From assembly GCA_963805855.1 (NCBI GenBank), contig CAWDVW010000006.1:260876-324875 (forward strand): a stretch of 64,000 bases of DNA, read 5' to 3'. The notes below the pieces were generated by a model. It ran no database searches, was not told the origin of the DNA, and saw only the letters and a list, made by a program, of their open reading frames with translations. The translations under genes and the position numbers were made by a program. Position 1 is the first letter of the stretch; every line of letters begins with the position of its first letter. The DNA is from Candidatus Dadabacteria bacterium. Lineage in GTDB: Bacteria; Desulfobacterota_D; UBA1144; Nemesobacterales; CSP1-2. Of this stretch, positions 395-22,986 are shown one piece after another.

Positions 395-1492
395 TCATGA
401 TTCATATTTAACGTCAATGTCAACATTTGAACTTGAATTGTTGGCTAATTCCCTCTCGGATTTTATTTTCATACTCTTCGCAGAATCTTCTTTAGCCGCC
501 ATGATTCCTTTAATTTTGCATGCCTTAAATGTCCACTTGTATGCGTTGTGTAAAAGCCGTGATGTTAAATTATCTTGGCTAAATCCATAAGTAGTGTTCA
601 AATTGGCGATTTTGTCTAATTCAAAGGTTGACCTGATTTTTGCATTAAAGATAGGACGAATTACTTCCCATTCCTCCTCACTTCCCATGACCTCCGCCCA
701 CTTATGAAGCCCTGGATCCTGATGCAATCTACTTAAGATATACTGATCTCTTCCGCGAAGTATAAGACGTTTGCAAAAATCATGAAGTGTAATGGCACGA
801 TTCGCCATACTAACCGCTTTAGCGTTGTAGACAACCTTTAGGTTATATCGGGACAGACGGAATCCAAGCTCGATATCTTCACAAATACGCACAATGGGAT
901 TAAAAACGCCATATTCAATTAAAAACGACCTCTTACAAGAAAGCCTTCCTGCCCAGAAATAGGTATAATCAAGAATATCTCCATGTTTTATATTTGGATA
1001 TGAAAAAAGTAAATGGCCGACTTCAGTTATATAATGCATTAATGGTGTAAGTGTAAGACTTGGCGACCAGCCCGTATAATTCAATACGGCGTAGTTATCG
1101 TCTGGATATTTATCATGAGAATTTATATGTTCTTCTAAAAGAGTTGGTGTTGCTATGTCATCATCGTCTAGAAAAAACAAGATTCTCCCTTGAGCTGCAT
1201 ATATACCATGATTCTTAGCTGAAGAACGACCCGCATTTTTTTGATAGAAGTATTTGATCGGGAGTCGATCAAAAAATGAATATACATTCTCCTTTGTCTG
1301 ATCATCAGACCCGTCGTCAATTATTATGACCTCGTAATCTTTCTTATCCAAAGTTTGTTCAACAAGACTTTCAAGTGCCGTTTTAAGAAGACTATCTCGA
1401 TTGAATGTATTTATGATGACACTAAGGTGAGGAGTATTTTTTACTGAATTCAAGTTATTATTCGGATCAGACGCACCTTTCTCGAAGGGCAT
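395..1492 (-). CDS. Glycosyltransferase family 2
   Basis: LSVIINTFNR, IIIDDGSDD, FLDDDD and EDIELGFRL motifs. Start probably MPFEKG (1492); ORF track starts at 1513. Confidence 0.9.
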   Translation of the reverse strand: MPFEKGASDPNNNLNSVKNTPHLSVIINTFNRDSLLKTALESLVEQTLDKKDYEVIIIDDGSDDQTKENVYSFFDRLPIKYFYQKNAGRSSAKNHGIYAAQGRILFFLDDDDIATPTLLEEHINSHDKYPDDNYAVLNYTGWSPSLTLTPLMHYITEVGHLLFSYPNIKHGDILDYTYFWAGRLSCKRSFLIEYGVFNPIVRICEDIELGFRLSRYNLKVVYNAKAVSMANRAITLHDFCKRLILRGRDQYILSRLHQDPGLHKWAEVMGSEEEWEVIRPIFNAKIRSTFELDKIANLNTTYGFSQDNLTSRLLHNAYKWTFKACKIKGIMAAKEDSAKSMKIKSERELANNSSSNVDIDVKYES

Positions 1493-2168
1493 TTTTTTTC
1501 TTCTGTGGCGCATTTGTTAAACGGTTTACTGAAGGTAAAAATAGCTTGAAAACATCGAAAGGCCTACAAATTTTCGTACTGCTAAATGGTTGATGTACCC
1601 AATCTCCAAGTAAATCGTGCCCACCCAATTTCTGAAAGATAGCAAAGTTTTCCCGAGTCTCTAATTTTTCCCATTTGGGATCATTCAGCATAAATTTTAC
1701 CAGAATATGACAGCTTATTATGTCAGTATCGTCGATAAACATCAAGCCACCTTGTTTTAGAAGCTCTGCACAGTAAAACCAGTCAACTATTGGGAAGGGG
1801 AATCTATGAGCTCCGTCAATAAAGGCAATATCGTATTTTTCCCCGGAGATTCTTGGTAAAAGGTTGGGAGAATTGCCAATCGAGAATTCAAAACTGGCCA
1901 GAGATACGTCTAATTTACGGCAATAAGCTGTTATACGATTAACTTCATCTTGGGAGGAGACAATACTAGTATGGATGGAAGCATTGGTTATACAGAAATA
2001 CCACGTGGTATAACCGGCTCCCGTCTCTGTTGTATGCATTCTTGGATTTAAGTAGTGGTCGAGAAACCTCAACAATTGCAAATTCGAATTCCACGATATT
2101 AAATTACCTTTCTCATCAAGCTGAAGTAATGGAAGGGCACTTTCTAATCTGTTTACTATTTGAGCCAT
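1467..2168 (-). CDS. Class I SAM-dependent methyltransferase (Methyltransf_24-like)
   Basis: ETGAGYTT glycine motif; YDIAFIDGAH...LKQGGLMFIDD. Confidence 0.85.
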   Translation of the reverse strand: MAQIVNRLESALPLLQLDEKGNLISWNSNLQLLRFLDHYLNPRMHTTETGAGYTTWYFCITNASIHTSIVSSQDEVNRITAYCRKLDVSLASFEFSIGNSPNLLPRISGEKYDIAFIDGAHRFPFPIVDWFYCAELLKQGGLMFIDDTDIISCHILVKFMLNDPKWEKLETRENFAIFQKLGGHDLLGDWVHQPFSSTKICRPFDVFKLFLPSVNRLTNAPQKKKNALRERCV

Positions 2169-2353: not shown

Positions 2354-3070
2354 CTATGAATACGACTCCAATATTCTAAATGCTTCTCCTTTCGATAAGT
2401 GAGGGTTCCGTGACAAATAGTCTTCCATATTTTTATTGGCTTTGTTATAGTCGTAGTTTGTAACAGGTTTTCTCATGCTATGATCTACAGGGGTAGCATC
2501 TATTATACCCATTCTCAAGCCCATCTTTTCGATTAGATAGGGCCACACGAAGTCGTAACCCCAACCCATGTAATTACTCTCATCGAAAGGGAAAATCAGT
2601 GAATATATATCGTGTCGCACAGAAAATAGCGGTCCAATCTCAACATATCGAGTCCTTCTAGCCTTCAACCCAGAAAGCTGCCTGACAAAGTGGAAGTCTA
2701 TATAGCTTTCATGGGTTCTTGCTGGTTGAGCGAGCGCAAAATCATATCTAGCAACCAACTGGAGATAAGATTCTAGAAAATTATCAGGCAATGCAATATC
2801 ATCATCACAAATAATCACGAAATCATAATGATCTAGATCTTCTTTTAGTAGCATCTTATTTAATAACACGAATTTGGGTAGTCCATCCTGAAAATCCATC
2901 TCTGTTACTTTTCTGACGTCTTCCGAAGAGATCTCTCCTCCTATGTTAATCCACTTCTGTTTCAATTTCCACTTACAGGACTTATTAAATTCGTTAACTA
3001 GATGCCCTATATTGTTTTTTTGCTTTGAAAGATAAATGCCTAATATTAAAATTGACACGTTACTTGGCAT
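2354..3070 (-). CDS. GT-A fold / DUF707-like putative glycosyltransferase
   Basis: YDFVIICDDDI, LAQPA, YVEIGPLFS, GWGYDFVW motifs. Start probably MPSNV (ORF track 3094). Confidence 0.7.
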   Translation of the reverse strand: MPSNVSILILGIYLSKQKNNIGHLVNEFNKSCKWKLKQKWINIGGEISSEDVRKVTEMDFQDGLPKFVLLNKMLLKEDLDHYDFVIICDDDIALPDNFLESYLQLVARYDFALAQPARTHESYIDFHFVRQLSGLKARRTRYVEIGPLFSVRHDIYSLIFPFDESNYMGWGYDFVWPYLIEKMGLRMGIIDATPVDHSMRKPVTNYDYNKANKNMEDYLSRNPHLSKGEAFRILESYS

Positions 3071-3137
3071 AAAAATCCCTCGTGAAGAAGTCACTTGAAA
3101 TAACCCGACAGTTATTTAGATTCGCGTGCGACGAAAA

Positions 3138-5858
3138 TTACCCAGCATCAAGCACGTCACCAAATTTCAAACTCATTTCGTCGTGCAATTGGTGCTCCTG
3201 TATCGAGTGAAAAATCTCAGCAAGCTTTTTACTGATAATTTCTTTAGAATAGTTTTTTTCAATATGTTCAATAGATTGTATAGAAATTTTATTCCAAAGC
3301 AACTCATCCGTATATAATCTTGCTACAGCATCTGCAAATCCTTTTGGTTCATCTGTGATAAGCGCATTTTCACCATCTACAAGTCCCATGCCTTCTGCAC
3401 CAATTTTAGTGGTCACCACCGGCAGACCACAAGCCATGCTTTGTCCAATTTTACCCTTCATTCCTGAACCGTAGCGTAAGGGCGCAACAAATACACGACA
3501 ATTCTTAAAGTAAGGGGTTACATCTTTCACGTACCCTGTTACTAAGATATCCTCTGAATGGAGTTGTTGAATTGATTTTGGGGGGTTACTACCAATTATG
3601 AAGAATTTCATATCTTCTATCTTGTTTTTAACTATTGGCAGTATTTCTCTGATAAAGTAAATAACAGCGTCCTCGTTCGGCCGATGAAAAAATCCACCTA
3701 TAAACATTATATTTTTTCTTTCTTCAAATGTTCTGTCTACTTTGACAACATCGTGAACGTTTGGTACTACTTCTACCTTAAGTTCCGGGATTTCCTTTAA
3801 CAAAAGTTCTTTTTCATCTTCAGTTACAGTAAATACGGTGTCAGAGCAAGCAGAATTAAAAAGTTCCATAGATTTATAATGATTGGCCTCATGAAGCAGC
3901 GCCTCCTTTCCGCTAACCGTCGCAGCTCTTTTCAATCTCAACCAGTGAAGGTCGACCGTATCATATATGATGCTACTATTTATGGCATAGGCCCTAATAT
4001 AGGGTATATATTTAAATGCAATTTCTGGTCTTGATAAAATTACAAAAGTAAAAATGTGTCCAATTTTTTGTAGGTATTTCTCGAAATCAACTGTTGCATC
4101 TAATATAGTTATTCCTATTTGGTGAAGTTCGCTCGAATACGGTTCCGTCTTCTTACAGTCATCGGGGAGAAAGGCGACCTTGAAGCCGATTTCATTTAGT
4201 ATTCTTAACATTGAATACATTCTTAAGGATCCAGAGTCCTTATCATACGTAGGTACAAATCGATCAATTACAAGAATCCACTCATCTTCTTCTGATACAG
4301 TAACGATTATATCTCTCAAACCTATATCATCTTCAAATGTTATTTCCTTTGATTCTTTAATAGCCCTTGAGGGGTTTTTAAATTCTTTCAGTTTCTCCTT
4401 CGTTTTAAGGACAAACATTGACCATCCTTGGAACGTAATTGTTTTAATGCTTTTCCAAAACAATTCATAGGTAGACCGCCTAAAGGTCCCAACCGGCATA
4501 ACTCTAGCTTCCAAGCTACGGAATTTGGCTATCAACCGCCAACCAATACTGCTGTTAGCATCTAGCCAAAATTGATAAAGCGACTCTTTTTCCATAGCCA
4601 TCTCTTCCACAGTCTTCTGCTTGTCATTCACGACAACTCGAAGCTGCCCAACTCGTTCCGTTAACCGTTCTATCTCATCCGTTAGTAGATTCTCCTGTTG
4701 CTTTTGCTCTCCTAGTGCCTCTGCAAGTTGAGCTACGTGCTGCTCTTTGTCGGCGAGTAACTGCTGAAGTTGAGCTACGTGCTGCTCTTTGTCTGCGAGT
4801 GACTGCTGAAGTTGAGCTACGTGCTGCTCTTTGTCTGCGAGTGACTGCTGAAGTTGAGCTACATGCTGCTCTTTGTCTGCGAGTGACTGCTGTTGTAATT
4901 TTATTGTTATTGAAAAGTTGTTGATTTGTTGATCCTTGCTTATCAAAACACTTTCTAACTGCGCCCTCGGTTCTTCATGATGGAACCGTTCGAGCAGCCT
5001 GGAAAACTTGCTAATGTTTTCTGATATCAAATTCTCCGGTCGACGATCCGAAGTTGAAGGTACAAATCCTTCCGTCGTAAGAGCACGCAGGCCAATGTAA
5101 AATAACTTATGTTCGGTTGTAAGCTTGTCTTCGTTTAAGAGTTCGAATGTTTCACAAGTATGGTGTCTTAACTCATGGAAAATTGTTTCATGAAGTTTGG
5201 ATAGATCGTTAGGCCTTTGTAGCCCACAGAACTCAACTAATTTGCTGATTTCCCGTGCCCAATCGTTAAAAAAGTCCTCATAAAAAGTAAAAATCCTGAG
5301 ACAGCCTTCCGTATCCCGAATGGCTGCTTGCATATACTGATTCCAGAGCAATAGACCTTTTTGCATAGAGAATTTGTCGCGCCTAGCCAAGGACTTGGCG
5401 ATTTCTAACGGGCTTCGAACACAGATTACGAATCGTAGATCAGGAATGAGTAATTTCCAGAATGGAAGTAGGATAGTTGCCCGGGGGTCTTTCCATCCCC
5501 ATGTTGGACTATTCGAAAAGATTTTCATTTGGTCTTTTGCTTTAAGGACAATTTGCTCTAATGAAGCATCGTACTCCCACCCCTCTTTAAATAGAGGTGG
5601 GTTATCCCAAGACCCTCCCAAGTGCGCAAGCAAAGCATCGTCGATTTCATAAGTGAAGCTCACGTTCTCGAAGTATCCCATTGGATTTGTCTCACTTGGT
5701 TCCATAAGCTGCTCAGGCGGACCTAAATCTAAACCACACAGGTTGAGCAAGCGAGCGATCATTGAAGTTCCACTGCGATGCATACCTATGATGCAGACCG
5801 CCTCATTGTTTTTTTCTTCCATATTGCTTTGCATCGAGCCACCCGTGGTAATGTCCAT
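3138..5858 (-). CDS. Fusion: sulfotransferase-like domain + coiled coil + GT4 glycosyltransferase (candidate chain terminator/length regulator)
   Basis: N-term IGMHRSGTS...WGWKDPR; central QQSLADKEQHVAQL repeats; SSIGWRL amphipathic segment; C-term DKDSGSLRM, APLRYGSGMKGK, GLPVVTTKIGAEGM. Confidence 0.85.
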   Translation of the reverse strand: MDITTGGSMQSNMEEKNNEAVCIIGMHRSGTSMIARLLNLCGLDLGPPEQLMEPSETNPMGYFENVSFTYEIDDALLAHLGGSWDNPPLFKEGWEYDASLEQIVLKAKDQMKIFSNSPTWGWKDPRATILLPFWKLLIPDLRFVICVRSPLEIAKSLARRDKFSMQKGLLLWNQYMQAAIRDTEGCLRIFTFYEDFFNDWAREISKLVEFCGLQRPNDLSKLHETIFHELRHHTCETFELLNEDKLTTEHKLFYIGLRALTTEGFVPSTSDRRPENLISENISKFSRLLERFHHEEPRAQLESVLISKDQQINNFSITIKLQQQSLADKEQHVAQLQQSLADKEQHVAQLQQSLADKEQHVAQLQQLLADKEQHVAQLAEALGEQKQQENLLTDEIERLTERVGQLRVVVNDKQKTVEEMAMEKESLYQFWLDANSSIGWRLIAKFRSLEARVMPVGTFRRSTYELFWKSIKTITFQGWSMFVLKTKEKLKEFKNPSRAIKESKEITFEDDIGLRDIIVTVSEEDEWILVIDRFVPTYDKDSGSLRMYSMLRILNEIGFKVAFLPDDCKKTEPYSSELHQIGITILDATVDFEKYLQKIGHIFTFVILSRPEIAFKYIPYIRAYAINSSIIYDTVDLHWLRLKRAATVSGKEALLHEANHYKSMELFNSACSDTVFTVTEDEKELLLKEIPELKVEVVPNVHDVVKVDRTFEERKNIMFIGGFFHRPNEDAVIYFIREILPIVKNKIEDMKFFIIGSNPPKSIQQLHSEDILVTGYVKDVTPYFKNCRVFVAPLRYGSGMKGKIGQSMACGLPVVTTKIGAEGMGLVDGENALITDEPKGFADAVARLYTDELLWNKISIQSIEHIEKNYSKEIISKKLAEIFHSIQEHQLHDEMSLKFGDVLDAG
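4725..4892. repeat. In-frame tandem repeat, 4 x 42 bp, coding QQSLADKEQHVAQL
   Basis: Unit aagttgagctacgtgctgctctttgtctgcgagtgactgctg occurs four times with 0-2 mismatches. Confidence 0.97.
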
Positions 5859-5918
5859 TTGGTGTTTTCTTCTAGTTACTTTTTTTCCTTCTTATGCTAT
5901 GCAAGATCCTCGATTTTA

Positions 5919-7328
5919 CTAAAGCGGTTTTGAGAAGTCGATCCTCATTTGGGTTGTTTTTTTTCTTTTTAATTTTAGGAGACGTCTGTATCCCACGCGT
6001 CCGGCCAGGTTATTTTCTTCGAAAGGGTCGTTATATAGATCAAAGAGGAATTCCTCTTTCCCTTGATTGTCTATATGCCTCAGATACTTATAACGATCTG
6101 TTCGAACCCCCTCGCTCTTTGCGATGCCTGGCTGTTCAAACATATGTTCATAATACCATTCATTACGGATTTTGTTTGAAGCCCCTGCCATGAGAGGAAT
6201 TAGGCTTATCCCTTGCGATAATTTCGACTGCGGGAGACCAGCTAACTCAAGGAGCGTAGGATAAAGGTCAATATTCAAGGTCATGGCGGGAACACGTTGT
6301 ACCTCAGGCTTCACTGCGGGCTTAATAATAAGAGGGATCCTAATGGACTCCTCGAATGCCCACCACTTGCCGGCAAGTCCGTGCTCGCCTAGGAGTAAAC
6401 CATTATCTGACGTGAAAACCAAACAAGTTTTGTCGTACACGTCACTTTTCTTCAAAGTCGCTACTACTTTTCCTACTACTTCGTCTAAATGTGTGATTAG
6501 CCTATAATATTGCTTTACGGAGTGTTGATACAGTTTGTCGTTTGAGAACAGCCTCTTCCAGCGTCGTCGGCCCTCAGAGTGCTGCAAAAATGCGGGCAAC
6601 CGATTAAAATGCTCTTCTGTGGCTGTAGGGGGTCGGGGTATTGTTACCTCTTCGTAGAGATGCGCAAACCTTGGATCAGATTTGAAGGGTTCAGGATCGT
6701 CGTCCTGCACATGTGGAGCCTTAGTGCTGATGGTGAGGCAGAATGGCTTACTTCCATTAATACCTTCTAGGAACTCTACGGATTGGCGACCTTGGATGGT
6801 TGTCAAGTGTTCCTGTCTGCCACCAGCCGGATCGAAATAGTAACCTTGCCCCGTAAATCCTCTCCAATAGTCAAATTCGTATTGTGGCATAGGACCACCG
6901 AGTCCCCATTTTCCTATAAAGGCGGTCTGATATCCAGCCTGCCGGAGCAGCATTGGGTACGATAACTGGAATTCTTCGTGGCTTAGAGGTGTGGAAAAAT
7001 CCCAGACGTTGTGCCGGTGGGCGTACTGTCCTGTAAGGATGCTAGCTCTGCTAGTGGGGCAAATAGAAGTGGTTACAAAATTATTTGTAAACAGGGTGCT
7101 GTCTGCTGCCAATGCATCAAGGTTTGGAGTGTGTATGATGCGGTTCCCAGTCACTCCTATTACATCCCAGCGTATATCATCTGCAAGGAAAACAACAAAA
7201 TTAAGAGGCCATTTTTTGTGAGTATCTTCACTGGGCTTCTTTATAACACCTAAACTTTGAGTACCCAGTGCCCCTGCAATGCCGCCAGTCACAATGCCGG
7301 TTATGAAAGACCTTCGATCAATTTTCAT
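5919..7328 (-). CDS. Sulfatase (formylglycine-dependent S1 family) with Tat signal peptide
   Basis: MKIDRRSFITG twin-arginine signal; FLADD, ICPTSRASILTG, GKWGL, FTSDNG, GEHG, DLYNDPFE. Confidence 0.92.
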   Translation of the reverse strand: MKIDRRSFITGIVTGGIAGALGTQSLGVIKKPSEDTHKKWPLNFVVFLADDIRWDVIGVTGNRIIHTPNLDALAADSTLFTNNFVTTSICPTSRASILTGQYAHRHNVWDFSTPLSHEEFQLSYPMLLRQAGYQTAFIGKWGLGGPMPQYEFDYWRGFTGQGYYFDPAGGRQEHLTTIQGRQSVEFLEGINGSKPFCLTISTKAPHVQDDDPEPFKSDPRFAHLYEEVTIPRPPTATEEHFNRLPAFLQHSEGRRRWKRLFSNDKLYQHSVKQYYRLITHLDEVVGKVVATLKKSDVYDKTCLVFTSDNGLLLGEHGLAGKWWAFEESIRIPLIIKPAVKPEVQRVPAMTLNIDLYPTLLELAGLPQSKLSQGISLIPLMAGASNKIRNEWYYEHMFEQPGIAKSEGVRTDRYKYLRHIDNQGKEEFLFDLYNDPFEENNLAGRVGYRRLLKLKRKKTTQMRIDFSKPL

Positions 7329-7471
7329 GGGTCAATCTCATAGTGCCTGTTTGTGGCTACGCTCTTGTATATTATCGTAAATTGAATATACCCTTAAGTC
7401 AGGAATATCGTCATTATTTGACTCTGACACCCAAAAGAATAAAGAACCTTCGGATGTTTTGTATAATCTCA

Positions 7472-8755
7472 CTATAACAGCTTCCATTCAATTGTTGCTT
7501 CGGGATCGAATAACCCAACATGGAGTTGATCGGCTATAATCTGAAATGCCATGTAATCAAATCGACGATCGTATACCACATATTCCCCTTCTTCATAAGC
7601 CGCGGCTCCAAGGCAAAGGAGATACTCTCCAGGATTGATATTAATTCTCTGTCTGAACGTCACTAAGATCACGTCATCCTTCTCAAGCTGTCCAATCATT
7701 ACATTGTGGTAGTAGGTATTTGTTCCGCATAAAATTGTTCCTTTGGGATCTTTTATTGAGAAAGCGATGATAGCCGAAGGCATGTTTTCATTATAACGTA
7801 CCTTGATTCTTATCAGATACTCATGGTTTCGTTCCAATACCTGAACCGGTTCGCTATTCAGGGTGAAAATGCCGGCTTCTAATATTTCAGCCTTTTTAGT
7901 TCCATACCGATCTTCATTTGGGTTGACCTTAAATAGTTCCTGCCACTCCACTTCTCCGGATGGGGATTTATCTTGTGAATTGATATTATCGGATTTTCTA
8001 GTTTTTGACGTAAGGGCTATCTCGCTCCTGGAAACAATCAGCCTATTGTATTCATCTACAACCGGTTTGGGCTTGCCCTCTGCGATCAAGGCACCCCTAT
8101 CGAACAGCAGAGCTCGATCACAAAAAGTCGTGATCAGATTCAAACTATGAGTCACAAATACGATGGTTACTCCTTTATCCTTGAATTCTTGAAACTTTGC
8201 AAAGCACCTCGCTTGGAACAGAGCATCTCCAACAGAAAGGGCTTCATCCACGATCAGAATGTCTGGGTCAATATTTATTGCAGCAGCAAAAGCCAAGCGC
8301 ACAAACATTCCGGTTGAATATGTTTTTACCGGCTGGTCAATAAACTTCCCAATCTCAGCAAAAGCCTCAATCTTAGGAAAACGCCGGTCCATCTCATCCC
8401 GATTGAATCCCATCAAGGCCCCGTTCATAAGAACATTTTCACGACCCGAAAATTCCGGGTTAAAGCCAGCGCCTAGTTCTAACAGCGCAGCGATACGACC
8501 GTTAACTTTTACTGATCCATTTGTCGGCTGGAGCACACCGCATATTATCTTCAACATTGTACTCTTGCCACTCCCGTTTTGACCAATTATACCAATGTGC
8601 TGGCCTTTCTCTACGTTGAAAGACACATCATTGAGGGCATGGAAAGCCTGATGAAATCTCTTTCCGTCGGTACTAAAGACCTCGCGCAGTCGGTCCTTGG
8701 GCGAATTATACAATTTGTAAATTTTGGTAACGTTATTGACTTCGATCGCATTCAT
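7472..8755 (-). CDS. wzt: Polysaccharide ABC exporter ATP-binding subunit with C-terminal Wzt_C-type carbohydrate-binding domain
   Basis: GQNGSGKST, YSTGMFVRLAFA, ILIVDEALSVGD; ~170-aa C-terminal extension starting near RYGTKKAEI. Start probably MNAIEV (8755). Confidence 0.93.
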   Translation of the reverse strand: MNAIEVNNVTKIYKLYNSPKDRLREVFSTDGKRFHQAFHALNDVSFNVEKGQHIGIIGQNGSGKSTMLKIICGVLQPTNGSVKVNGRIAALLELGAGFNPEFSGRENVLMNGALMGFNRDEMDRRFPKIEAFAEIGKFIDQPVKTYSTGMFVRLAFAAAINIDPDILIVDEALSVGDALFQARCFAKFQEFKDKGVTIVFVTHSLNLITTFCDRALLFDRGALIAEGKPKPVVDEYNRLIVSRSEIALTSKTRKSDNINSQDKSPSGEVEWQELFKVNPNEDRYGTKKAEILEAGIFTLNSEPVQVLERNHEYLIRIKVRYNENMPSAIIAFSIKDPKGTILCGTNTYYHNVMIGQLEKDDVILVTFRQRININPGEYLLCLGAAAYEEGEYVVYDRRFDYMAFQIIADQLHVGLFDPEATIEWKLL

Positions 8756-8766
8756 GTTCAAACTCA

Positions 8767-8801
8767 CAAGATGCATGATTCAAGATTCATGATGCACGAT
8801 A
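8767..8801. repeat. 7-bp degenerate tandem array (5 units), one arm of an inverted pair
   Basis: caagatg catgatt caagatt catgatg cacgata; reverse complement resembles the 8969-9010 array. Confidence 0.8.
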
Positions 8802-8857
8802 TACCAGGCACGATGATTTTTTATAATTGCCTCTCTGAAGTTAAATCGCTTTGCATC

Positions 8858-8950
8858 TTATCTCCCATCGCTATTACTAAGCTCATCAAAAACTTCTTTT
8901 TTAAGAAATTCTGTCTCATTCAGTATCTCTAAATGAACTTTACTTTCATC
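8858..8950 (-). pseudogene. Remnant resembling the C-terminal half of a four-helix-bundle (IVP/TIGR02436-like) protein
   Basis: Manual translation DESKVHLEILNETEFLKKEVFDELSNSDGR*; no start; enclosed by inverted 7-mer arrays. Confidence 0.5.
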
Positions 8951-8968
8951 GCGATTTCGCCTTTTTCG

Positions 8969-9010
8969 TCCTGTATCCTGCATCATGTATCCTGTATCAT
9001 GCATCCTGTA
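8969..9010. repeat. 7-bp tandem array (6 units), other arm of the inverted pair
   Basis: tcctgta tcctgca tcatgta tcctgta tcatgca tcctgta. Confidence 0.9.
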
Positions 9011-9019
9011 CTTTCATTG

Positions 9020-9838
9020 TCATAGTACATCTCCGAAGGCGGGTTTTAATTTTTTAAAGATGAGCCCTCCGATTGCAAATGTGAATAGACTGAGTAAAAA
9101 GAGGTACGAAACGCCTTCGATATTTATATTGATATCGGCTGTTCGCAAAAGACTTACACGATACCCTTCTATCGAATATATAATTGGGTTCAATCCGTAA
9201 ACACCTTGCCAAAATTTAGGAATAAGATGCCGAGGGTAAATTATCGGCGTCAGAAAAAACCAGACGTTTACAAAAACTCCTATGATTTGCCCGATGTCTC
9301 GCAGAAAAACGTTGAGTGCAGAGAGCATCCAAGATAATCCGAGAGCAAATATTGCAGTTGTGAGTAATATTGGAATGATCAATAGAATTTTTAATGTTAT
9401 ACTATACCCAAAAAACACAAGAAGACCGATAAAAATCACCACACCGATTAAGTGATTGATAATGGCTGCAATAAGAAGTGTAAAAGGCAATATCTCAGAT
9501 GGAAATACGGTCTTACTGACCAAGCTCGACTGCTCTAGGACCGCTCCTGGAGATCGAGTTAAGACATCCGCGAAAAACATCCAAGGCAGTAGACCGGCTA
9601 CCAGCCAAACTGCGAAATTGGTTCCACCGTATTCGGGTCCTAATTTTATTTTTAAAATTACAGAAAACACAAAATAGTAAATGAGAAGTTGTGTTAGAGG
9701 ATGAATGATTGACCAGAAAATCCCAAGAAATGATCCAACATGCCTTGCACGGATGTCACGGATTGCCATGCTCCAGATCATATACCTATTCCTATAAACA
9801 CTAATAGTAAAATTTAAGAAATCCCTTAAAATTTGCAT
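9020..9838 (-). CDS. wzm: Polysaccharide ABC exporter permease (copy 1, intact)
   Basis: RDIRARHVGSFLGIFWSIIHPL, GLLPWMFF, FLTPIIYP; directly upstream of wzt. Confidence 0.93.
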   Translation of the reverse strand: MQILRDFLNFTISVYRNRYMIWSMAIRDIRARHVGSFLGIFWSIIHPLTQLLIYYFVFSVILKIKLGPEYGGTNFAVWLVAGLLPWMFFADVLTRSPGAVLEQSSLVSKTVFPSEILPFTLLIAAIINHLIGVVIFIGLLVFFGYSITLKILLIIPILLTTAIFALGLSWMLSALNVFLRDIGQIIGVFVNVWFFLTPIIYPRHLIPKFWQGVYGLNPIIYSIEGYRVSLLRTADININIEGVSYLFLLSLFTFAIGGLIFKKLKPAFGDVL

Positions 9839-10335
9839 TTGCGCTAATTAATCCGCGGTGCAATTCTGACTTGCCTATATTTAAGGCACAAAATAACATT
9901 CCGTTAAATTCATCGTATCGGAATTTCATCCATAGCATTTTTCGGTATGCCGATATTCGATATATGGTCAGATACAATAATTAATGGCTTTCATTGACGT
10001 GAGAGTAGAATGGGTCTAGTCCCGCTCTCGCAAATTGGATTCGATCTGTTGACATTAGCTAAAAAAAATCTCATCTGCAGATATCAATAAACCTTCACAG
10101 CTACTAACTTAAGATTATTGCTTACGTTAGTTTACTTTACTTAGATTGACGTTATAAGCACATCCACTGCCATCGCATGTATATATCATTCGCACAAGTT
10201 ATCCCTTCAAATTGGGCGGCCACAAGTTTAAGCGGAATCGAATCTGAAAGAGTATTATATTGTCTAACATTGAATACACATTTTCAATGGCATTCTTGAT
10301 AATTACCAATTCTGAAGCTTGTTTGTAACTAATAT

Positions 10336-11913
10336 TCACGTAGGAGGTATGTTCCGACGGAGGAATTGCTCGTTGCTCGGCAATTGAGGTGTCTCAACAG
10401 GCTCGAAATTTGTCATAATGTATCTCCACACGAGGGAATGAGTATTGCGAAAGCGAAGATCATCCCGTCCATCTAATGCTACATCACGCAGAAGAACCCA
10501 GTTTACTCTATTATTTGTCAAATCTTGAATCATAATTTTCTGCTTGTCAATGGTTTCCCGATGAAGTAGATACGTATCATATACGGGGGCCTTGAGTTTT
10601 AAGATTGCGTAAAGACCAGGCGAAAAAGGTGCAATGAGTAATCCTTCGCGTGGAGCAACATGCTGGGCAACCAGTCGCTTGACAATGTCAATATAATCGG
10701 CCTGGTCTTTTGGCAGCCAAAGCTGATCACCATTGATGCTATACTGAATTAGTTGATCATTAAATCGGAGTTTGAACATATACGGGTTATCTGTAACGAT
10801 CATGGCAAAAACAGTGCCAGTAAGAATTAAAACCACTAGACCTACAGCCAAGCCTTTATGATGATGTAAGATCAATGTATATAGCAGAGCCACGGAACCT
10901 AACAAGAATGGATGGATACTCTCATCGAGATGTGGAAGGTCAGCCCGGCTAAAAGCGTGATGCAGGTAAAATATTCCTACAAAGGAAGAGGCAATTAGTA
11001 ACGAATTACGTTGGACATCACTTGATTTGCACCTTAACGACCATATGATTGAAAAAACATAAAAAATCGGAATAACCAAAAAGAACAAACCCAAGAAGAA
11101 ACTGGATGCGCCGTTTAATATATCCAATTGAGTATAGTCAACAGTCCAAGGCCAGGGGACCGGTAAAAATATATTGGTATGGATAAATCCATTTTTAAGA
11201 TGTTTTAATACTTTAACAAGGAACGCATCGTACATACCAGAAACAAAAAGCAGCATAAGCAGCATAGGAATATACCCTGCGATAATCCCGGCACTCCAGA
11301 CTCCGTATCGCCTAAGTATGTTACTTTGCTTTTCCTTCAGCCACATAAAAAGTATGAGCATAAAAAATGCCAAGAAGGTATACAAGCCATGATTACGCCC
11401 CATCAGTGCCGCCAGGCCGACAAATAAGCCGGAAAAGAAATAACGTTTAGAGACTGGTTCTTCGATTAGACAGACCGCTATATAAACTGCTGCCATGGCA
11501 ACGCTAGGCTCAAATAACTTTTGCCAATGATACATATTCTGCATCCACACTAGTAATAATAACCCCACGAAACCTAATACCCACCAGTTTTTAACGACTC
11601 GTCTAGCGGCTAACAGTCCTAAGGTTAAACCTATTACCTGAAACATAGCTAAGGACAGCCGGAAGGCCATAATTCCCTGCCCAAATATTAAACCCCATGC
11701 TGCACCCCAGTAATATCGCCCAGGATCATAGGACCGAAAATCTAACATGGGGATATCACCAGCCGCCGTGCGAATAGTTCCATACCACACATAGCCTTCA
11801 TCAGCCAAGTTCAAACCAATATTGGCTTGGAGTAAAAAAGAGAGGCTTACGAGGACCAGAGCAATTAGAAGCGTATACAAAACTTCATGCTGCTGTGATT
11901 TATCTGCTGTCAT
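10336..11913 (-). CDS. Polytopic membrane protein, GT-C-like (lipid-linked sugar transferase candidate)
   Basis: About 11-12 hydrophobic segments; LADEGY...GDIPMLDFRSYDPG first-loop acidic motif; soluble C-terminal domain. Confidence 0.65.
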   Translation of the reverse strand: MTADKSQQHEVLYTLLIALVLVSLSFLLQANIGLNLADEGYVWYGTIRTAAGDIPMLDFRSYDPGRYYWGAAWGLIFGQGIMAFRLSLAMFQVIGLTLGLLAARRVVKNWWVLGFVGLLLLVWMQNMYHWQKLFEPSVAMAAVYIAVCLIEEPVSKRYFFSGLFVGLAALMGRNHGLYTFLAFFMLILFMWLKEKQSNILRRYGVWSAGIIAGYIPMLLMLLFVSGMYDAFLVKVLKHLKNGFIHTNIFLPVPWPWTVDYTQLDILNGASSFFLGLFFLVIPIFYVFSIIWSLRCKSSDVQRNSLLIASSFVGIFYLHHAFSRADLPHLDESIHPFLLGSVALLYTLILHHHKGLAVGLVVLILTGTVFAMIVTDNPYMFKLRFNDQLIQYSINGDQLWLPKDQADYIDIVKRLVAQHVAPREGLLIAPFSPGLYAILKLKAPVYDTYLLHRETIDKQKIMIQDLTNNRVNWVLLRDVALDGRDDLRFRNTHSLVWRYIMTNFEPVETPQLPSNEQFLRRNIPPT

Positions 11914-12176
11914 ATTTATGGTAAGTCCGTGTGGTTAGTTATCTCTTCGAGCTATGAAACCAAAATGCTTCGTAATTTCAGCGCTAAGCTGATTCTTGGA
12001 TGACGCAAATTTATCTAGTAGATATAAATGAATATTGATACAAAATAATTTGACCGATATCTGTGAAATCTCTTTCTTGCTAACTGGCGGCTTTAGTTAC
12101 TTCCTTAACTGTATCCGAATATAATTGACTATCAGACCTGGTTATGGGAGGCCAGAATATTAAAGGCTAGTGGTGA

Positions 12177-13310
12177 TTACCCTCCGAGAATTGTATAAAC
12201 AGCTTCAACGACCCGTCCAATGTCTCTCTCTTCCATCCCGACCCACAGCGGTAAGCGAATCAAACAATTGCTTGCTAATTGCGTGTGTGGTAGATCAGCA
12301 CTGGCCCTTCCATATCTTTTGCCAGCCGGAGCCGTGTGCAGGGGAACATAGTGAAAGAAAGCTTGAATGCCGGCCGCCTCCAAGTGTTCCAATACTAACG
12401 TACGATGTTCAAAACTAGGTAAAATCAGGTAATATAAATGCCCATTGTGCCGACATTCAGTAGGAACAATGGGGCGACGTACCTGCTTTTGTCCTTCTAG
12501 TTCGACAAATGCCTGGTGATAGTGTCTCCATATATCCAACCTATGTTGAGTAATGAGTTCTGCTCCCTCCAATTGCGCATAGAGATAAGCAGCCGTGATT
12601 TCACTGGGCAGAAACGATGAACCTATATCAACCCACGTGTACTTATCAACCTGGCCGCGAAAGAATTGACTTCGGTTTGTGCCTTTCTCCCAAATAATCT
12701 CAGCCCGCTCAGCCAAATTTGGATAGTTAATGAGCAGGGCTCCTCCATGACCCGAGATAAGATTTTTGCTCTCGTGAAAACTAAGCGTGGCCATGTGACC
12801 TATGCTACCCAGTGGACGCTCCTTATACGTAGACATGATTGTCTGAGCTGCATCCTCGATCACCAACAAACCGTAACGGTCAGCAATAGCCATAATGGCA
12901 TCCATCTCGCAAGCCACGCCAGCGTAATGTACTGGCACGATGGCTTTGGTGCGGGAAGTAATAGCGGCTTCGATCTTAGTTTCGTCAAGATTGAGAGTAT
13001 CATGGCGAATATCAACAAAGACCGGAACCCCGCCTCGGAGAGCAAAGGCGTTTGCTGTAGAGACAAACGTGTAAGAGGGCATGATCACTTCATCACCAGG
13101 CTGGATATCCCCGAGGATCGCGGCCATCTCGAGAGCACCAGTGCAAGAGTGCGTTAAAAAGGCACGATGGCAACTGATTTGTCTTTCTAACCACGCATGA
13201 CATTTCTTCGTGAACACTCCACTGCCCGACAGGTGTCCATTCGCAATGGCTTGTTGAATGTAATCTAACTCTCTTCCCACCAAGTGTGGGCGGTTGAAAT
13301 AAATATACAC
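12177..13310 (-). CDS. rffA: dTDP-4-amino-4,6-dideoxygalactose transaminase (DegT family)
   Basis: LTHSCTGALEMAA, IEDAAQ, SFHESKN (PLP Lys), EKGTNRSQFFRGQVDKYTWVDIGSS. Confidence 0.93.
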   Translation of the reverse strand: MYIYFNRPHLVGRELDYIQQAIANGHLSGSGVFTKKCHAWLERQISCHRAFLTHSCTGALEMAAILGDIQPGDEVIMPSYTFVSTANAFALRGGVPVFVDIRHDTLNLDETKIEAAITSRTKAIVPVHYAGVACEMDAIMAIADRYGLLVIEDAAQTIMSTYKERPLGSIGHMATLSFHESKNLISGHGGALLINYPNLAERAEIIWEKGTNRSQFFRGQVDKYTWVDIGSSFLPSEITAAYLYAQLEGAELITQHRLDIWRHYHQAFVELEGQKQVRRPIVPTECRHNGHLYYLILPSFEHRTLVLEHLEAAGIQAFFHYVPLHTAPAGKRYGRASADLPHTQLASNCLIRLPLWVGMEERDIGRVVEAVYTILGG

Positions 13311-14424: not shown

Positions 14425-15151
14425 TACTTATACTGTTCTCCCTTAATGGCTTTCTAGAAATCAGATATTAACTCATTTTATGCATAAACCTTTTCTTTTC
14501 TCATTATTTCGCAACGATAAGCTCAATCGAGTCATACCTTTCCTGACTAGCCACATTTTTCCTTGAAAACAAGCCTTCTTTCCTCCAAGCATAGTCTTAT
14601 ATCTGGCTCGTCGTTGCCCTTTTCTTGTGAATTGACGAACGTCACCTGTTAAGGCTCCTACTTGCATCTCCTTTAACTTCCGATTTCAATATCCTCTCTG
14701 TTGCTTTAGCCAAGCTAGAGTCTCAATCCTCCTCTCTGGTTCTTAATATATCTTATGGTAAGCCCGGTACGAAACGGATGCGTCGTTTAGTTCGATATAG
14801 CTTCAGTGTAGTCAACAGTCCGATGCTTCGGCCAATAGAACCCACCGTAGTTATTCGACAGCGATGCGTCCTTAAGCACCGGACAATCATTTAATACTAA
14901 TCTCAGCTGCGTACGCCCCATGTTCGGAGGCCGACTAGTCGACCTATCCCCAGCCCTCTTCCCAGGAAATTTCGGCTATGAAATCTGCACGGTGCCTACT
15001 GGGCATTCCTGCCAATTTAGGTGAAACTTATATTGACCCGTTGTCTTTCACAGCCCTGAATTTTAGGACTACTTTCCAATTCTATCAACGTTTTAATGGA
15101 CTTCTTGGCCATGAAATCTCACATATTCATAGTTTAGGAACAATACCAGCA

Positions 15152-18083: not shown

Positions 18084-18896
18084 TCATAGTGCATTTGCTA
18101 AGGCGGGTTTTAGTTTCCTAAAGATCAGCCCACCTACTGCAAACGTGACGAGTCCTAGTAACAAGAGGTATAAGAGTCCTTAAATATTTACATTTAAGGT
18201 TCCCAAAAATCCTGCACGATAACCTTCTACGGAATAAAGCATAGGATTCAAACCGAAAAGAAGTTGCAAATTTTCTGGAATGCCATGCCTCGGATAGACT
18301 ATCGGAGTTAAGAAGAACCAAATATTCACAAGCACACCAATGACCTGCCCGATGTCTCGCAGAAAAACGTTGAGTGCAGAGAGCATCCAAGATAATCCGA
18401 GAGCAAATATTGCAGTTGTGAGTAATATTGGAATGATCAATAGAATTTTTAATGTTATACTATACCCAAAAAACACAAGAAGACCGATAAAAATCACCAC
18501 ACCGATTAAGTGATTGATAATGGCTGCAATAAGAAGTGTAAAAGGCAATATCTCAGATGGAAATACGGTCTTACTGACCAAGCTCGACTGCTCTAGGACC
18601 GCTCCTGGAGATCGAGTTAAGACATCCGCGAAAAACATCCAAGGCAGTAGACCGGCTACCAGCCAAACTGCGAAATTGGTTCCACCGTATTCGGGTCCTA
18701 ATTTTATTTTTAAAATTACAGAAAACACAAAATAGTAAATGAGAAGTTGTGTTAGAGGATGAATGATTGACCAGAAAATCCCAAGAAATGATCCAACATA
18801 CCTTGCACGGATGTCACGGATTGCCATGCTCTTTATCATGTAGGAGTTATGATACACCATAACAAGAAAACTAAAGAAATCGTTTATGATTTGCAT
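18084..18896 (-). pseudogene. wzm: Second wzm permease with a premature in-frame TAA at 18180-18182
   Basis: After ...NVNI* the same frame continues GLLYLLLLGLVTFAVGGLIFRKLKPALANAL*, matching the copy-1 C-terminus, which has GAA (Glu) at that codon. Confidence 0.85.
18346..18831. repeat. ~486-bp near-identical direct repeat of 9288-9773 (wzm core)
   Basis: Constant offset of 9058 bp; one mismatch noticed (His/Tyr codon); flanks diverged. Confidence 0.92.
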
Positions 18897-19009: not shown

Positions 19010-19839
19010 TCATGTTTCTAAAGTAAATTCCTTTAGAGCGTCCTCCCACAATGGCATGATGATACTGACTTTCCTAAGCCGCGCGTTACTTAGTACTGAA
19101 TAAGAAGGTCTTTGGGCAGCTCTTGAGATTTCACACGTTTTTATAGGGATAATTTCTGTACCAAAACTACTAAATTTCACGATTTGTTGAGCAAAATCAT
19201 ACCAGGAACAATCTCCCTCTCCGGAAGCATGATAGATTCCATAATCATCGATGGGGATCAATTTGTTAATGCATTCTGCCAGGTCCCTTGCATAGGTAGG
19301 ACAGCCTATCTGGTCGTTGACAACTTTTATTTCTTCCTTAACTTTCGCAAGGTCTAAAATCGTATTAACAAAGTTCTTCTCTGAGTTGCCATAAAGCCAG
19401 GACGTCCTAATTACAAAAAATCTGGAACAGATATCCTTTACAAGATCCTCTCCACTTAATTTTGTTTTTCCGTAGACATTCAATGGATTTGGTGCATCTG
19501 TCTCTATATATGGCTCCCTTTTTCGACCGTCAAATACATAATCAGTTGACATATAAAATTAGTTTTGCCTTGATTTCTTCGGATGCGGTGGCGACGTTCT
19601 CAGTTCCTAAGGAATTTACATCCCATGCAAGCTCCGGATTTTCTTCACACCCGTCGACATCGGTATAGGCAGCCGTGTGTATTATGATTTCGGGTTTTAG
19701 TTCTATAATCTTTGGTATTATTTCAGAGTCTGTAATATCTATTTCATTGTGGGTTGGAGTAAGGAGCTCATCCACGTTTAAAACGTTTCTTAGTTCTCTG
19801 CCCAAGCTGACCGGTTGCGCCGGTAATTAGTATTCTCAT
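19010..19839 (-). pseudogene. rfbD: dTDP-4-dehydrorhamnose reductase split by two +1 frameshifts (pseudogene or sequencing indels)
   Basis: ATG 19839 MRILITGATGQLG; extra G near 19802; HTAAYTDVDGCE; extra T near 19556; STDYVFDG, YGKTK. Confidence 0.88.
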
Positions 19840-19895: not shown

Positions 19896-20288
19896 TTATA
19901 GAATAATTCTTTTAATACCATCCTTAATAAGTGACACGTTAAAATTGATGAGAAAACCGAGACGCTTGCAACTCAATTTTAAATAACTCAGTATTTGTGC
20001 TTCCCATACAGGATTCATCTCGTCTACCGCTTTCAGTTCACAAATGATCAACTCTTCCACCAAAACGTCTAATCGTAGCCCTTCATCAAACACAATCCCG
20101 TCATATACGATCGGGATATCCACCTGCCTTTGATATGTTAACTCTCGTTTAAATAGCTCGTGGCAGAAACATATTTCATAAACTCTTTCCAACAAGCCCG
20201 GCCCTAATTTCTTATGCACAGTATACGCGGAATCTACTATTTTCTGAGCAATTGATTCTTCTCTTTCTGATAGAGCTTTAAAATTCAT
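19896..20288 (-). CDS. GxxExxY protein (PD-(D/E)XK-like, TIGR04256-type)
   Basis: HKKLGPGLLERVY, RLDVLVE, ELKAV, AQILSYLKL, GFLINFN. Confidence 0.93.
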   Translation of the reverse strand: MNFKALSEREESIAQKIVDSAYTVHKKLGPGLLERVYEICFCHELFKRELTYQRQVDIPIVYDGIVFDEGLRLDVLVEELIICELKAVDEMNPVWEAQILSYLKLSCKRLGFLINFNVSLIKDGIKRIIL

Positions 20289-21905: not shown

Positions 21906-22986
21906 TTAGGTTAGCTCTATGGTGCTTTGATCACCCAGAATGAACTTATGAGTTTTTGGCTTGTCAGTATTGTTATAAATCCTGACCTCTCGCCCTATCA
22001 GACTCTTTTCAATTCTCGAGTTGGTATCACTGATCTTTGAATTTTCAAGAACTATACTATATTCAATCTCACTATTTTTAATCGTACATCCATAATAAAT
22101 TGAAGTGAAGGGCCCTATATAACTTCTTTCAATCAATGTATTTTCACCCACTATTGCAGGACCCCTTATTGTGCTCTTGATTACCTTGGCGCCCTCTTGG
22201 ATAATTACCTTTCCTGATATGTCGGAGCTGCTGTCCACATGACCCATGATCTTGGGTTCGCCACTTGGAATAATGTTATCCAGAATAAGTCTGTTTGCCT
22301 CTAACAAATCCTCAGGTTTTCCTGTGTCTTTCCACCAACCTGTCACCTCGCAGTATCCGACCCGAAAACCATTATCAATTAAATACTGATGCGCATCGGA
22401 GATCTCGAGTTCGCCCCTTTTACTCGGCGTAATATTGTTTACTGCTTCAAATATCGAGCGATCGTAAATATAAATTCCGGTCACTGCAAAGGGACTTTTA
22501 GGATTTTTTGGCTTCTCTATAACTCTGATTACTCTCCCATCTTCAATGTCCGCAACTCCAAATCTTTGAGGTTCCCTAACTTTTGCCAGCACTAGCTGGC
22601 AATTATTCTTATTCCTGATAAACTCGTCGATGAATCCCTTGATTCCTCCGAGCAGGATGTTATCTCCCAAGTAAAACACGAAGGGCGAATCCCTTATAAA
22701 ATCTTCGGATATTTTAATAACATGAGCGAGGCCAAGTGGAGCCTTTTGATCAATATAGGCGAAATTTGCGCCCCACTTCTTCCCATCTCCCAATGCCTCT
22801 TTAATTTCTTTTCCCGCATGCGAGCTTGATCAAAATTCCGATATCATTAATCCCCGCTTGAATTACTGATTCTATAGCGTAGTAAATCATCGGTTTGTTT
22901 GCTATAGGGATCAAGTGTTTATTACTTGTGTGAGTGAGGGGTCTTAACCTCGATCCATGGCCCCCGCTTGTAATTAATGCTTTCAT
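21906..22986 (-). pseudogene. rfbA: Glucose-1-phosphate thymidylyltransferase, long form, with a +1 frameshift near 22826 (pseudogene or sequencing indel)
   Basis: MKALITSGGHGSRLRPLT...K.LIP, then frame switch to SHAGKEIKEALGDG, PLGLAH, YLGDN, RGELEI, WKDTG, C-terminal beta-helix. Confidence 0.88.

Follow-up and report, generated by a model that had tools for sequence, protein, structure and literature searches.

A stretch of 64,000 nucleotides (nt) from a Candidatus Dadabacteria bacterium (contig CAWDVW010000006.1, positions 260,876 to 324,875 of the forward strand; here called the window) contains the core of an ATP-binding cassette (ABC)-transporter-dependent surface-glycan operon of an uncultured Dadabacteria-like diderm. 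Besides the exporter proteins Wzm and Wzt, this operon encodes an exported sulfatase and a 906-amino-acid (aa) fusion protein, in which a predicted 3′-phosphoadenosine-5′-phosphosulfate (PAPS) sulfotransferase is separated by a long helical region from a family 4 glycosyltransferase (GT4). By analogy with known systems, the architecture gives good support to a reading in which the sulfotransferase would cap the glycan, the helical region would measure it, and the capped chain would be exported. The identities of the component proteins are almost certain; the parts that they would play are graded below.

Wzt, the sulfatase, and the fusion had been proposed earlier by a model that read the letters alone (the sequence-only reading). 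All three genes are present on the minus strand at the positions it gave, with one correction: the end it assigned to wzt, 8755, is the second methionine codon, and the gene runs to 8776. Wzt (7472 to 8776) is an ABC ATPase with a C-terminal carbohydrate-binding module (CBM). Its nucleotide-binding domain (NBD) covers approximately 8012 to 8776 (ABC_tran, E 5.8e-24; TagH/Wzt-type NCBIfam matches), and the C-terminal extension noticed earlier matches Wzt_C (PF14524, E 9.3e-31) at residues 287 to 424 (7505 to 7918), over positions 1 to 142 of the 143 in the model. We presume this module to be the chain-end reader. The sulfatase (5919 to 7328) matches PF00884 (E 5.2e-48) and begins MKIDRRSFITG..., in keeping with the twin-arginine translocation (Tat) signal attributed to it. 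The four parts attributed to the fusion (3138 to 5858), namely, a sulfotransferase-like domain (here matching Sulfotransfer_3), a coiled-coil region, an amphipathic segment with SSIGWRL, and a GT4 domain, are all present (Pfam; full-length AlphaFold model). The fusion/sulfatase and sulfatase/wzt junctions are spanned, with 0 to 1 differences, by short-read contigs of public sequencing runs; these are not independent support, because the runs may include the sample of origin.

The N-terminal domain of the fusion (residues 19 to 261; 5076 to 5804, minus strand) matches two Pfam sulfotransferase families, Sulfotransfer_3 (PF13469, E 8.2e-12, residues 21 to 214, above the cut-off) and Sulfotransfer_1 (PF00685, E 3.6e-7). 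We aligned residues 1 to 290 with 29 of 45 sulfotransferase-bearing homologs, for a total of 30 sequences. Invariant in all 30 were R28, S29, G30, T31, and S32 of the 5′-phosphosulfate-binding (5′-PSB) motif GMHRSGTS (residues 25 to 32; 5763 to 5786), which has no Walker lysine; N58, G61, and E64; K123, P125, and R126 of WKDPR (residues 122 to 126; 5481 to 5495); and R148, P150, and S156. From family knowledge rather than a docked ligand, we take R148 to S156 (5391 to 5417) to be the 3′-phosphate-binding (3′-PB) site. Both PAPS sites that the sequence-only reading had suggested looking for are thereby invariant, and every motif residue is intact in the window's copy. An AlphaFold model of the domain (predicted local distance difference test [pLDDT], 88.4; predicted TM score [pTM], 0.87) has the sulfotransferase fold. 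The top 50 VIA-align rows were all sulfotransferases, with Z scores of 10 to 15; the best were TPST1 (5wri_A; Z 15.1; root mean square deviation, 4.3; 216 aligned residues) and the olefin-synthase sulfotransferase domain 4gox (Z 15.1), and Stf9 scored Z 12.4. A sequence search of the PDB with the domain alone gave weak matches, the best being estrogen sulfotransferase (E 0.0026). As for PAPS supply, the genome has 4 adenosine-5′-phosphosulfate (APS) kinase matches.

If the domain were instead a P-loop kinase, which the sequence-only reading had kept as an alternative, or an inactive relic, the cap would be phosphate based or absent. Residues 25 to 32 do fit a P-loop-like GxxxxG[TS] pattern, and the first nonsulfotransferase row listed by Foldseek against the PDB, at rank 47, was a kinase, Fap7 (4cw7_G). 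We consider this alternative extremely improbable, given that the motif reads SGTS without a Walker lysine, that R148 and S156 are invariant, that two Pfam sulfotransferase families match, and that the structural matches were sulfotransferases in 50 of 50 rows with the motif residues intact here. Because of the Pfam matches, the invariant 5′-PSB and 3′-PB motifs, and the structural matches of the model, we identify the domain, as far as sequence and model can tell, as a PAPS sulfotransferase and not a kinase.

Behind the sulfotransferase domain, the full-length AlphaFold model, built on an alignment of the window's protein with 43 of 119 homologs (mean pLDDT, 82.3), places a helical "ruler" at residues 274 to 435 (4554 to 5039), with DSSP helices at residues 274 to 294, 298 to 368, and 385 to 435. 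The same region gave SMC/Rad50-type coiled-coil matches, and a crude heptad score marks residues 309 to 425 as coiled coil. Three further helices (residues 438 to 453, 459 to 477, and 479 to 493) make up the amphipathic segment that contains SSIGWRL (residues 438 to 493; 4380 to 4547). Aromatic and basic residues (W, F, R, and K) abound in these helices, which are presumed from the model to be the membrane-proximal part of the protein. After a linker of low model confidence (residues 494 to 526) follows the GT4 domain of GT-B type (residues 527 to 905; 3144 to 4280; PF13692, E 3.2e-30; PF00534, E 4.8e-11), with a pLDDT mostly >90; the Glyco_trans_1_4 match covers residues 715 to 851. The sulfotransferase and GT4 domains are thus separated by ~140 to 160 helical residues (138 to 162), which would span ~20 to 24 nm if they formed one continuous coiled coil at ~0.148 nm per residue. 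Residues 323 to 378 of the ruler consist of QQSLADKEQHVAQL repeated four times, the product of a 42-nt tandem repeat at 4725 to 4892 (4.0 copies, 97% matches). Contigs of public runs cover 4335 to 5001 thinly, and no joint was reported in that interval. The 14-residue unit equals two heptads, and gain or loss of a unit would alter the length of the ruler in whole heptad pairs.

Proteins of this general layout are known. The parts of one report that deal with these pathways describe WbbB of Klebsiella pneumoniae O12/Raoultella terrigena and ORF6 of K. pneumoniae O7 as single proteins in which a coiled-coil ruler links a terminator at the N terminus to polymerizing glycosyltransferases at the C terminus, state that the CBM of Wzt reads the cap, and name methyl, methyl-phosphate, and Kdo as the caps shown experimentally (PMC11231755). 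The fusion resembles WbbB and O7 ORF6 in its order (a domain in the terminator position, a long helical region, a membrane-proximal part, and a glycosyltransferase) and in being encoded beside wzm and a CBM-bearing wzt, as expected of a cytoplasmic, ABC-transporter-dependent pathway. It differs from them in that its distal module is a predicted PAPS sulfotransferase rather than a β-Kdo GT99 or a methyltransferase-kinase, in that it has one fused glycosyltransferase (GT4), and in that its operon includes a gene for an exported sulfatase. A sequence relation between their terminator domains and that of the window was neither found nor expected. A coiled-coil terminator and a cap-specific Wzt_C are also the logic of WbdD (Escherichia coli O9a/O8, the same as K. 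pneumoniae O3/O5), and the window's Wzt_C is a sequence homolog of the O9a Wzt module: its best PDB sequence match was 2r5o (the C-terminal domain of E. coli O9a Wzt, E 9.5e-6), followed by Aquifex Wzt CBM entries. In contrast to the window's candidate, which is fused to a glycosyltransferase and would add sulfate, WbdD is separate from the polymerase and caps with methyl or methyl-phosphate. We concluded by analogy that the system would work like those of WbbB, O7 ORF6, and WbdD, with a terminator module drawn from a different enzyme family.

Homologs of the fusion suggest that the N-terminal position is exchangeable among enzymes. Among the best 120 of 210 homologous proteins found, the GT4 domain was matched in 95, the "mid" stretch of residues 430 to 560 in 68, and the sulfotransferase domain in 46; the crude heptad score called a coiled coil in 86 of the 120, including 36 of the 46 that bear a sulfotransferase. 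The module that precedes the coiled coil and GT4 in these listed homologs varies: it is a sulfotransferase, an S-adenosylmethionine (SAM) methyltransferase, a Methyltransf_24 domain, or a GT2. Five homologs (P0098, P0109, P0117, P0118, and P0120) are methyltransferase-sulfotransferase fusions of 550 to 611 aa, which recall the methyltransferase-kinase pair of WbdD that makes the methyl-phosphate cap. In another, P0113, a sulfotransferase is joined to a DUF707 domain; the gene immediately downstream of the window's fusion belongs to that family as well. One protein, P0002, is a likely ortholog of the fusion. A full-length counterpart of the fusion was not found in 40 related genomes, which gave only separate GT4 or sulfotransferase matches at ≤36% identity.

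We surveyed the surroundings of sulfotransferase relatives in 160 loci, the best 80 from each of two contig collections (genome and metagenome). Motif matches encoded sulfotransferase relatives in 567 of 599 cases in the genome contigs and in 557 of 595 in the metagenome contigs; the relatives came from a profile search, an earlier single-protein pattern search of the genome contigs having given 58 matches, none of them confirmed. The relatives are 28 to 50% identical and belong to many phyla, including Gram-positives, Bacillota, Actinomycetota, Planctomycetota, candidate phyla, and one archaeon. Open reading frames (ORFs) of the loci were called in-house and searched with the window's proteins, with a cut-off of E<1e-30 for the Wzt NBD. 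This NBD was present in 42 loci (27 of the 68 with at least 5 kb on both sides), Wzm was also present in 36 of the 42, and 28 of the 42 Wzt proteins extend at least 137 aa beyond the NBD; 21 of those 28 match Wzt_C in Pfam. With a heptad score calibrated on the window's five proteins only, a coiled coil of at least 35 aa was found in 88 of the 160 sulfotransferase proteins, and in nearly all of these it follows the domain directly. The background, drawn at random from other ORFs (at least 250 aa) of these loci, was 14 of 400. In this clade, a following coiled coil and neighboring wzm/wzt genes are overrepresented, and the WbbB/WbdD-like layout proposed by the sequence-only reading fits by analogy.

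Two other Wzt arrangements were seen. Among the 29 Wzt proteins scanned with Pfam, which were those 28 and the window's own, three gave Sulfotransfer_1 (best E 4.7e-21) and tetratricopeptide repeat (TPR) matches, which we assigned to the Wzt proteins of three Paenibacillus loci (L070:15890-17761, L073:15936-17750, and L078:15955-17811) because of their length of 604 to 623 aa; these would be Wzt fused to a sulfotransferase. Each has as its neighbor a protein of ~1000 aa that combines a sulfotransferase with a coiled coil. The genome of the window has a second wzm/wzt operon (L191, G000:C2:36000-52000, at ~3500 to 12500), in which Wzt matches Wzt_C (E 2.7e-12). It adjoins two APS-kinase genes (one fused to DUF2061), methyltransferases, a UDP-glucose dehydrogenase, and an epimerase. 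A 256-aa ORF of this locus was considered as a hidden sulfotransferase and rejected (hhalign probability, 3.7%).

We propose the following explanation. GT4 and the neighboring GT2 enzymes would extend a polyprenol-linked chain at the membrane, and the chain would probably contain 6-deoxy or 4-amino-6-deoxy sugars. The sulfotransferase, held ~20 to 24 nm off on its helical stalk, would reach only chains that are long enough; by sulfating their nonreducing end, it would stop their growth. Wzt_C would recognize the sulfated end and admit the chain to Wzm/Wzt, and the Tat-exported exo-sulfatase would remove or edit the terminal sulfate in the periplasm after export. To this explanation as a whole we give an even chance. 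Capping of finished chains at the nonreducing end by the sulfotransferase, with Wzt_C as the reader of the cap, is by analogy slightly favored over its absence.

Several observations weigh against such a cap. The crude coiled-coil call and the CBM are uncorrelated in our tally, the Wzt extension being present in 7 of 7 coiled-coil-negative loci versus 21 of 35 coiled-coil-positive loci. When 29 Wzt proteins were aligned, only F374 was nearly invariant in the Wzt_C part, and a common sulfate pocket among these modules is not evident from the alignment. GT2-coiled coil-GT4 proteins exist among the relatives of the fusion and show that termination is not necessarily the task of the domain that precedes the coil. 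The sulfate could sit on internal residues, and the SAM methyltransferase of the operon (Methyltransf_24, PF13578, E 1.3e-7; 1467 to 2168, minus strand) could supply the cap instead, as an alternative or additional capping enzyme.

The lack of correlation, the GT2-coiled coil-GT4 relatives, and the methyltransferase gene of the operon also speak for a different account. In it, the sulfotransferase decorates internal or side positions, the helical region serves for oligomerization or as a scaffold, and what Wzt_C reads is something else, such as a terminal sugar or a methyl group added by the Methyltransf_24 enzyme. Bacterial sulfated glycans usually carry their sulfate on the repeat units, and 14 of the 42 Wzt proteins beside such sulfotransferases have no C-terminal extension. 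We regard this account as unlikely. A domain ~140 to 160 helical residues away from a membrane-proximal glycosyltransferase would seem poorly placed to modify each repeat; methyltransferase modules, which are known terminators, hold the same position in homologs; and the frequency of a coiled coil after the sulfotransferase is far above that of the background (88/160 versus 14/400).

The last step of the proposed scheme, which follows export, depends on the sulfatase. Its twin-arginine signal region, read from the sequence, comprises residues 1 to 32 (7233 to 7328, minus strand), with RRSF at residues 5 to 8; RRx[FLIVM] occurs within the first 25 residues in 72 of 120 listed sulfatase homologs. 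Besides PF00884, the protein matches SGSH_C (E 4.3e-26). Its formylglycine motif, C90-P-T-S-R (7047 to 7061), aligns to C-A-A-S-R of 6hr5. CPTSR is without the usual third-position proline, as is typical of its family, in which the pattern is C-x-[TSVA...]-S-R; the exact sequence CPTSR occurs in 14 of the 120 listed homologs. For maturation and export, the genome encodes TatC, and the FGE-sulfatase domain was matched in open frames of 440 aa and of 808 aa. Among solved chains, 6hr5, P36_S1_25, ranked first (E 7.1e-83; 282 bits; residues 34 to 461 of 469), and the next-best solved chain scored E 5.6e-60 (207 bits); the S1_25 likeness rests on this ranking of solved chains. The sections of a report that treat P36_S1_25 describe desulfation of the nonreducing-end rhamnose of Rha3S-X-Rha3S (PMC8511951). 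Exo-action on a terminal sulfated 6-deoxyhexose is the kind of activity that de-capping would need, and the locus itself has genes for dTDP-6-deoxyhexose enzymes. P36_S1_25 and the window's enzyme share the S1 fold family, a variant formylglycine motif, and export. Unlike P36_S1_25, which is catabolic and fused to a GH78 rhamnosidase in a utilization locus, the window's enzyme stands alone in a biosynthesis and export operon.

Sulfate that is added inside and edited outside by a secreted S1 sulfatase is known from animals, in which Sulf1 and Sulf2 are extracellular heparan-sulfate 6-O-endosulfatases. This is a functional analogy only: those enzymes belong to eukaryotes, work at internal sites, and take no part in export or in setting chain length.

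In the survey that the sequence-only reading had suggested, Wzt_C beside a sulfotransferase recurred in 21 of the 160 loci, and a strong sulfatase homolog in none. A lack of synteny of the sulfatase in homologous loci had been named beforehand as refuting, and the outcome goes against the reading: the 160 loci gave only 3 weak family matches (Planctomycetota and Gemmatimonadota). No sulfatase match at E≤1e-50 was present in 119 other genomes of the phylum, and the best match in 40 relatives is only 28 to 32% identical; close homologs are known at 64 to 84% identity, on contigs of up to 46 kb. Identity to P36_S1_25 is moderate (~40% by eye), so that substrate specificity is only suggested by likeness. 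We concluded that the sulfatase as part of a general system across the family is not supported.

In a glycan locus of a genome of the same order, too, a sulfate writer is paired with an exported sulfatase. On its 6.3-kb contig (L183, G019:C102:1-6258), a stand-alone sulfotransferase (291 aa), a 244-aa gene, a sulfatase (462 aa), and a Wzx-type flippase lie in a row. The sulfatase has a Sec signal, is of the Cys type, and matches SGSH_C.

Codon composition gave information on the history of the locus. In this genome (GC content, 43.5%), the GC content at third codon positions (GC3) was 0.44 for wzt, 0.45 for the sulfatase, and 0.45 for both the sulfotransferase and the coiled-coil parts of the fusion. 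It was 0.33 for the GT4 part, 0.38 for the DUF707-like gene, 0.37 for the Methyltransf_24 gene, 0.33 for the GT2 gene, and, unlike wzt, 0.37 for wzm. Taken as blocks, wzt, the sulfatase, and codons 1 to 490 of the fusion (0.45) differ from the GT4 part and the three downstream genes (0.34) with a z score of 5.7. The change point within the fusion falls at codon 490 (near 4389), the end of the amphipathic helices, with a likelihood ratio reached by 0 of 300 shuffles. The fusion gene looks recombinant by this measure, and wzt, the sulfatase, and the sulfotransferase-ruler part may be one block with a shared history that was joined to a resident GT4. GC3 blocks can also have causes other than shared history, which counts against this use of them. 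In 15 relatives, no DNA-level counterpart of the window's first 20 kb was seen except for short dispersed repeats. Together with the lack of a full-length fusion in the 40 relatives, this indicates that the locus is variable between close relatives. A second copy of wzm (18084 to 18896), with 87% DNA identity to wzm, has a premature stop ~30 codons before its end and no wzt beside it.

The sulfatase might be a stranger to the glycan of the operon, namely, a periplasmic scavenger of environmental sulfated 6-deoxyhexose glycans (ulvan- or fucoidan-like, from the salt marsh) that landed in a variable locus. We consider this an appreciable minority possibility. Its orthologue is absent from the related loci, relatives, and phylum genomes searched; its characterized relatives are catabolic; the stretch is present in salt-marsh metagenomes; and the locus is mosaic, with its second wzm copy, its GC3 change point, and its first 20 kb unmatched in relatives. 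Against this, the gene lies inside the operon, on the same strand as its neighbors wzt (143 nt away) and the terminator gene (60 nt away), and exactly these two neighbors have the same GC3. The scans that covered the window's genes gave no glycoside hydrolase, lyase, or uptake gene of a utilization locus, and the other genome of this order has its sulfotransferase and sulfatase side by side with a Wzx flippase. Because of its position, its likeness to P36_S1_25, the GC3 block, and the pairing in the other genome, we still tie the sulfatase to the operon. That it acts on the operon's glycan is a tentative proposal, a little short of even. That it acts specifically on the cap, i.e., as a de-capping enzyme after export, is doubtful.

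Sulfotransferase genes have been met in polysaccharide loci before. In Aeromonas salmonicida, the relevant part of one account notes, without explaining it, a gene with a sulfotransferase domain that lies between wzt and wbbB, and it gives the known O-antigen as free of sulfate (PMC4483657). A literature search, with the 2019 census of Mann et al. outside its coverage, gave no paper linking sulfotransferases to Wzt-type chain termination. That bioinformatic census (Mann, Kimber, and Whitfield, Glycobiology 29:822) is said to predict new terminator chemistries, and sulfotransferase terminators may already have been predicted in print there. The synechan xss cluster of Synechocystis also has sulfotransferases in a polysaccharide locus; it is reportedly of the Wzx/Wzy type, without a coiled-coil ruler or a CBM-bearing Wzt. 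The locus-specific new element of the window is the exo-sulfatase-like gene between cap reader and cap writer.

A sulfate cap, if true, would be a new chemistry for the cap-and-export pathway, and the candidate writer clade is widespread. To our knowledge, all known caps stay on the mature glycan. Removal of a cap after export, if true, would amount to a new principle, in which a polysaccharide bears a quality-control tag only for a time, and such a cap could therefore have been missed in structures of mature glycans. In the furthest-reaching form of the proposal, which is improbable as a whole, the sulfate would be a traceless export ticket, written in the cytoplasm, read by Wzt_C, and erased in the periplasm to leave a capless mature glycan; wzt, the sulfatase, and codons 1 to 490 of the fusion would be one recombining cassette for different polymerase glycosyltransferases, and the tandem repeat would tune chain length. 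The four genes wzm, wzt, sulfatase, and fusion are a compact set suited to reconstitution.

The remaining genes of the operon extend from the fusion toward the start of the window, all on the minus strand: a DUF707-like gene, 43 nt downstream of the fusion (2354 to 3094; PF05212, E 4.2e-6), the Methyltransf_24 gene, and a GT2 glycosyltransferase gene (395 to 1513; PF00535, E 1.2e-27). Wzm, the ABC-2 permease of the exporter, is encoded at 9020 to 9838 on the same strand (PF01061, ABC2_membrane, E 3.2e-23). From wzm towards GT2, the gaps between genes are 243, 143, 60, 43, and 185 nt, in that order, followed by an overlap. No terminator-like site was found on the minus strand in these intergenic gaps; in the promoter and terminator scan as a whole, the number of sites was not above that in shuffles. 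Upstream of wzm, also on the minus strand, lies a gene for a 525-aa polytopic membrane protein (10336 to 11913). It has no Pfam match and is assigned to RgtA/B/C/D-like or PMT_2 clusters with a protein-atlas feature score of 0.99; as a lead only, it is probably a GT-C enzyme that glycosylates in the periplasm. The next feature on that strand (12177 to 13310; NF008687, E 3.5e-179, above the cut-off) is a WecE-like dTDP-4-keto-6-deoxyhexose aminotransferase, which supplies 4-amino-4,6-dideoxyhexose. Also upstream of wzm are genes for DUF6817, an ATP-grasp ligase, a GT2, and the second Wzm, and the dTDP-6-deoxyhexose genes rmlD, rmlB, rmlC/FdtA-like, and rmlA-like. The glycan genes continue beyond the left edge of the window, with a GT2, a PMT_2 GT-C, a GT4, a DegT aminotransferase, and a methyltransferase. 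With those in the window, they make up a surface-glycan region of >40 kb. Elsewhere, the genome has resistance-nodulation-division (RND) efflux genes with a periplasmic adaptor and a Wzy_C/WaaL-family protein. Public sequencing runs of salt-marsh metagenomes contain the stretch; none of the runs listed was of RNA. ProA homologs at 94% identity bear the name "Thermodesulfobacteriota bacterium" and those at 74% the name "Candidatus Dadabacteria."

We dropped the idea that rmlD and rmlA are decayed pseudogenes. The frame breaks (rmlD, 19542 to 19552; rmlA-like, 22793 to 22801) lie beside one-letter differences from short-read contigs, at 19556/19559 and 22825/22828, respectively; a further one-letter difference is at 19800. 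The 19556/19559 site is a run of four T's, and, by our reading, the rmlD frame is recovered, with its STDYVFDG motif, when one T is dropped. Assembly errors or strain differences probably account for the breaks. The genome has no other rmlD copy. Between rmlD and rmlB is a PD-(D/E)XK gene (PDDEXK_3; 19896 to 20288), pieces of which recur in relatives. Contig depth at this gene was 16 to 21 in 3 of 4 runs, compared to ~1 to 5 in neighboring bins, and some contigs skip or replace the gene, with joints at 19930-20247 and 19916-20297.

Repeated sequences occur at other places in the window. Repeats of ~40 nt made of TGCAGGATACAGGA-like units (8766 to 8822 and 8965 to 9018) flank the wzm-wzt intergenic region and recur on both strands at many sites in the genome and in relatives; they may be elements like repetitive extragenic palindromes (REP) and possible recombination points. 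A stretch of ~300 nt (14462 to 14765) that overlaps a 64-codon ORF has many copies at 69 to 83% identity in one related genome (G007) and a few in others; it is possibly a small element, mobile or repeated. On the minus strand, the stretches 29650 to 30907 and 31061 to 32326 have 69% DNA identity to each other; the first overlaps an ORF at 29601 to 30977 with a weak AMP-binding match, and the second spans ORFs at 31012 to 31704 and 31713 to 32402. They adjoin a B12-binding radical SAM gene (32653 to 34251), methyltransferases, and a homocitrate/isopropylmalate-synthase-like gene.

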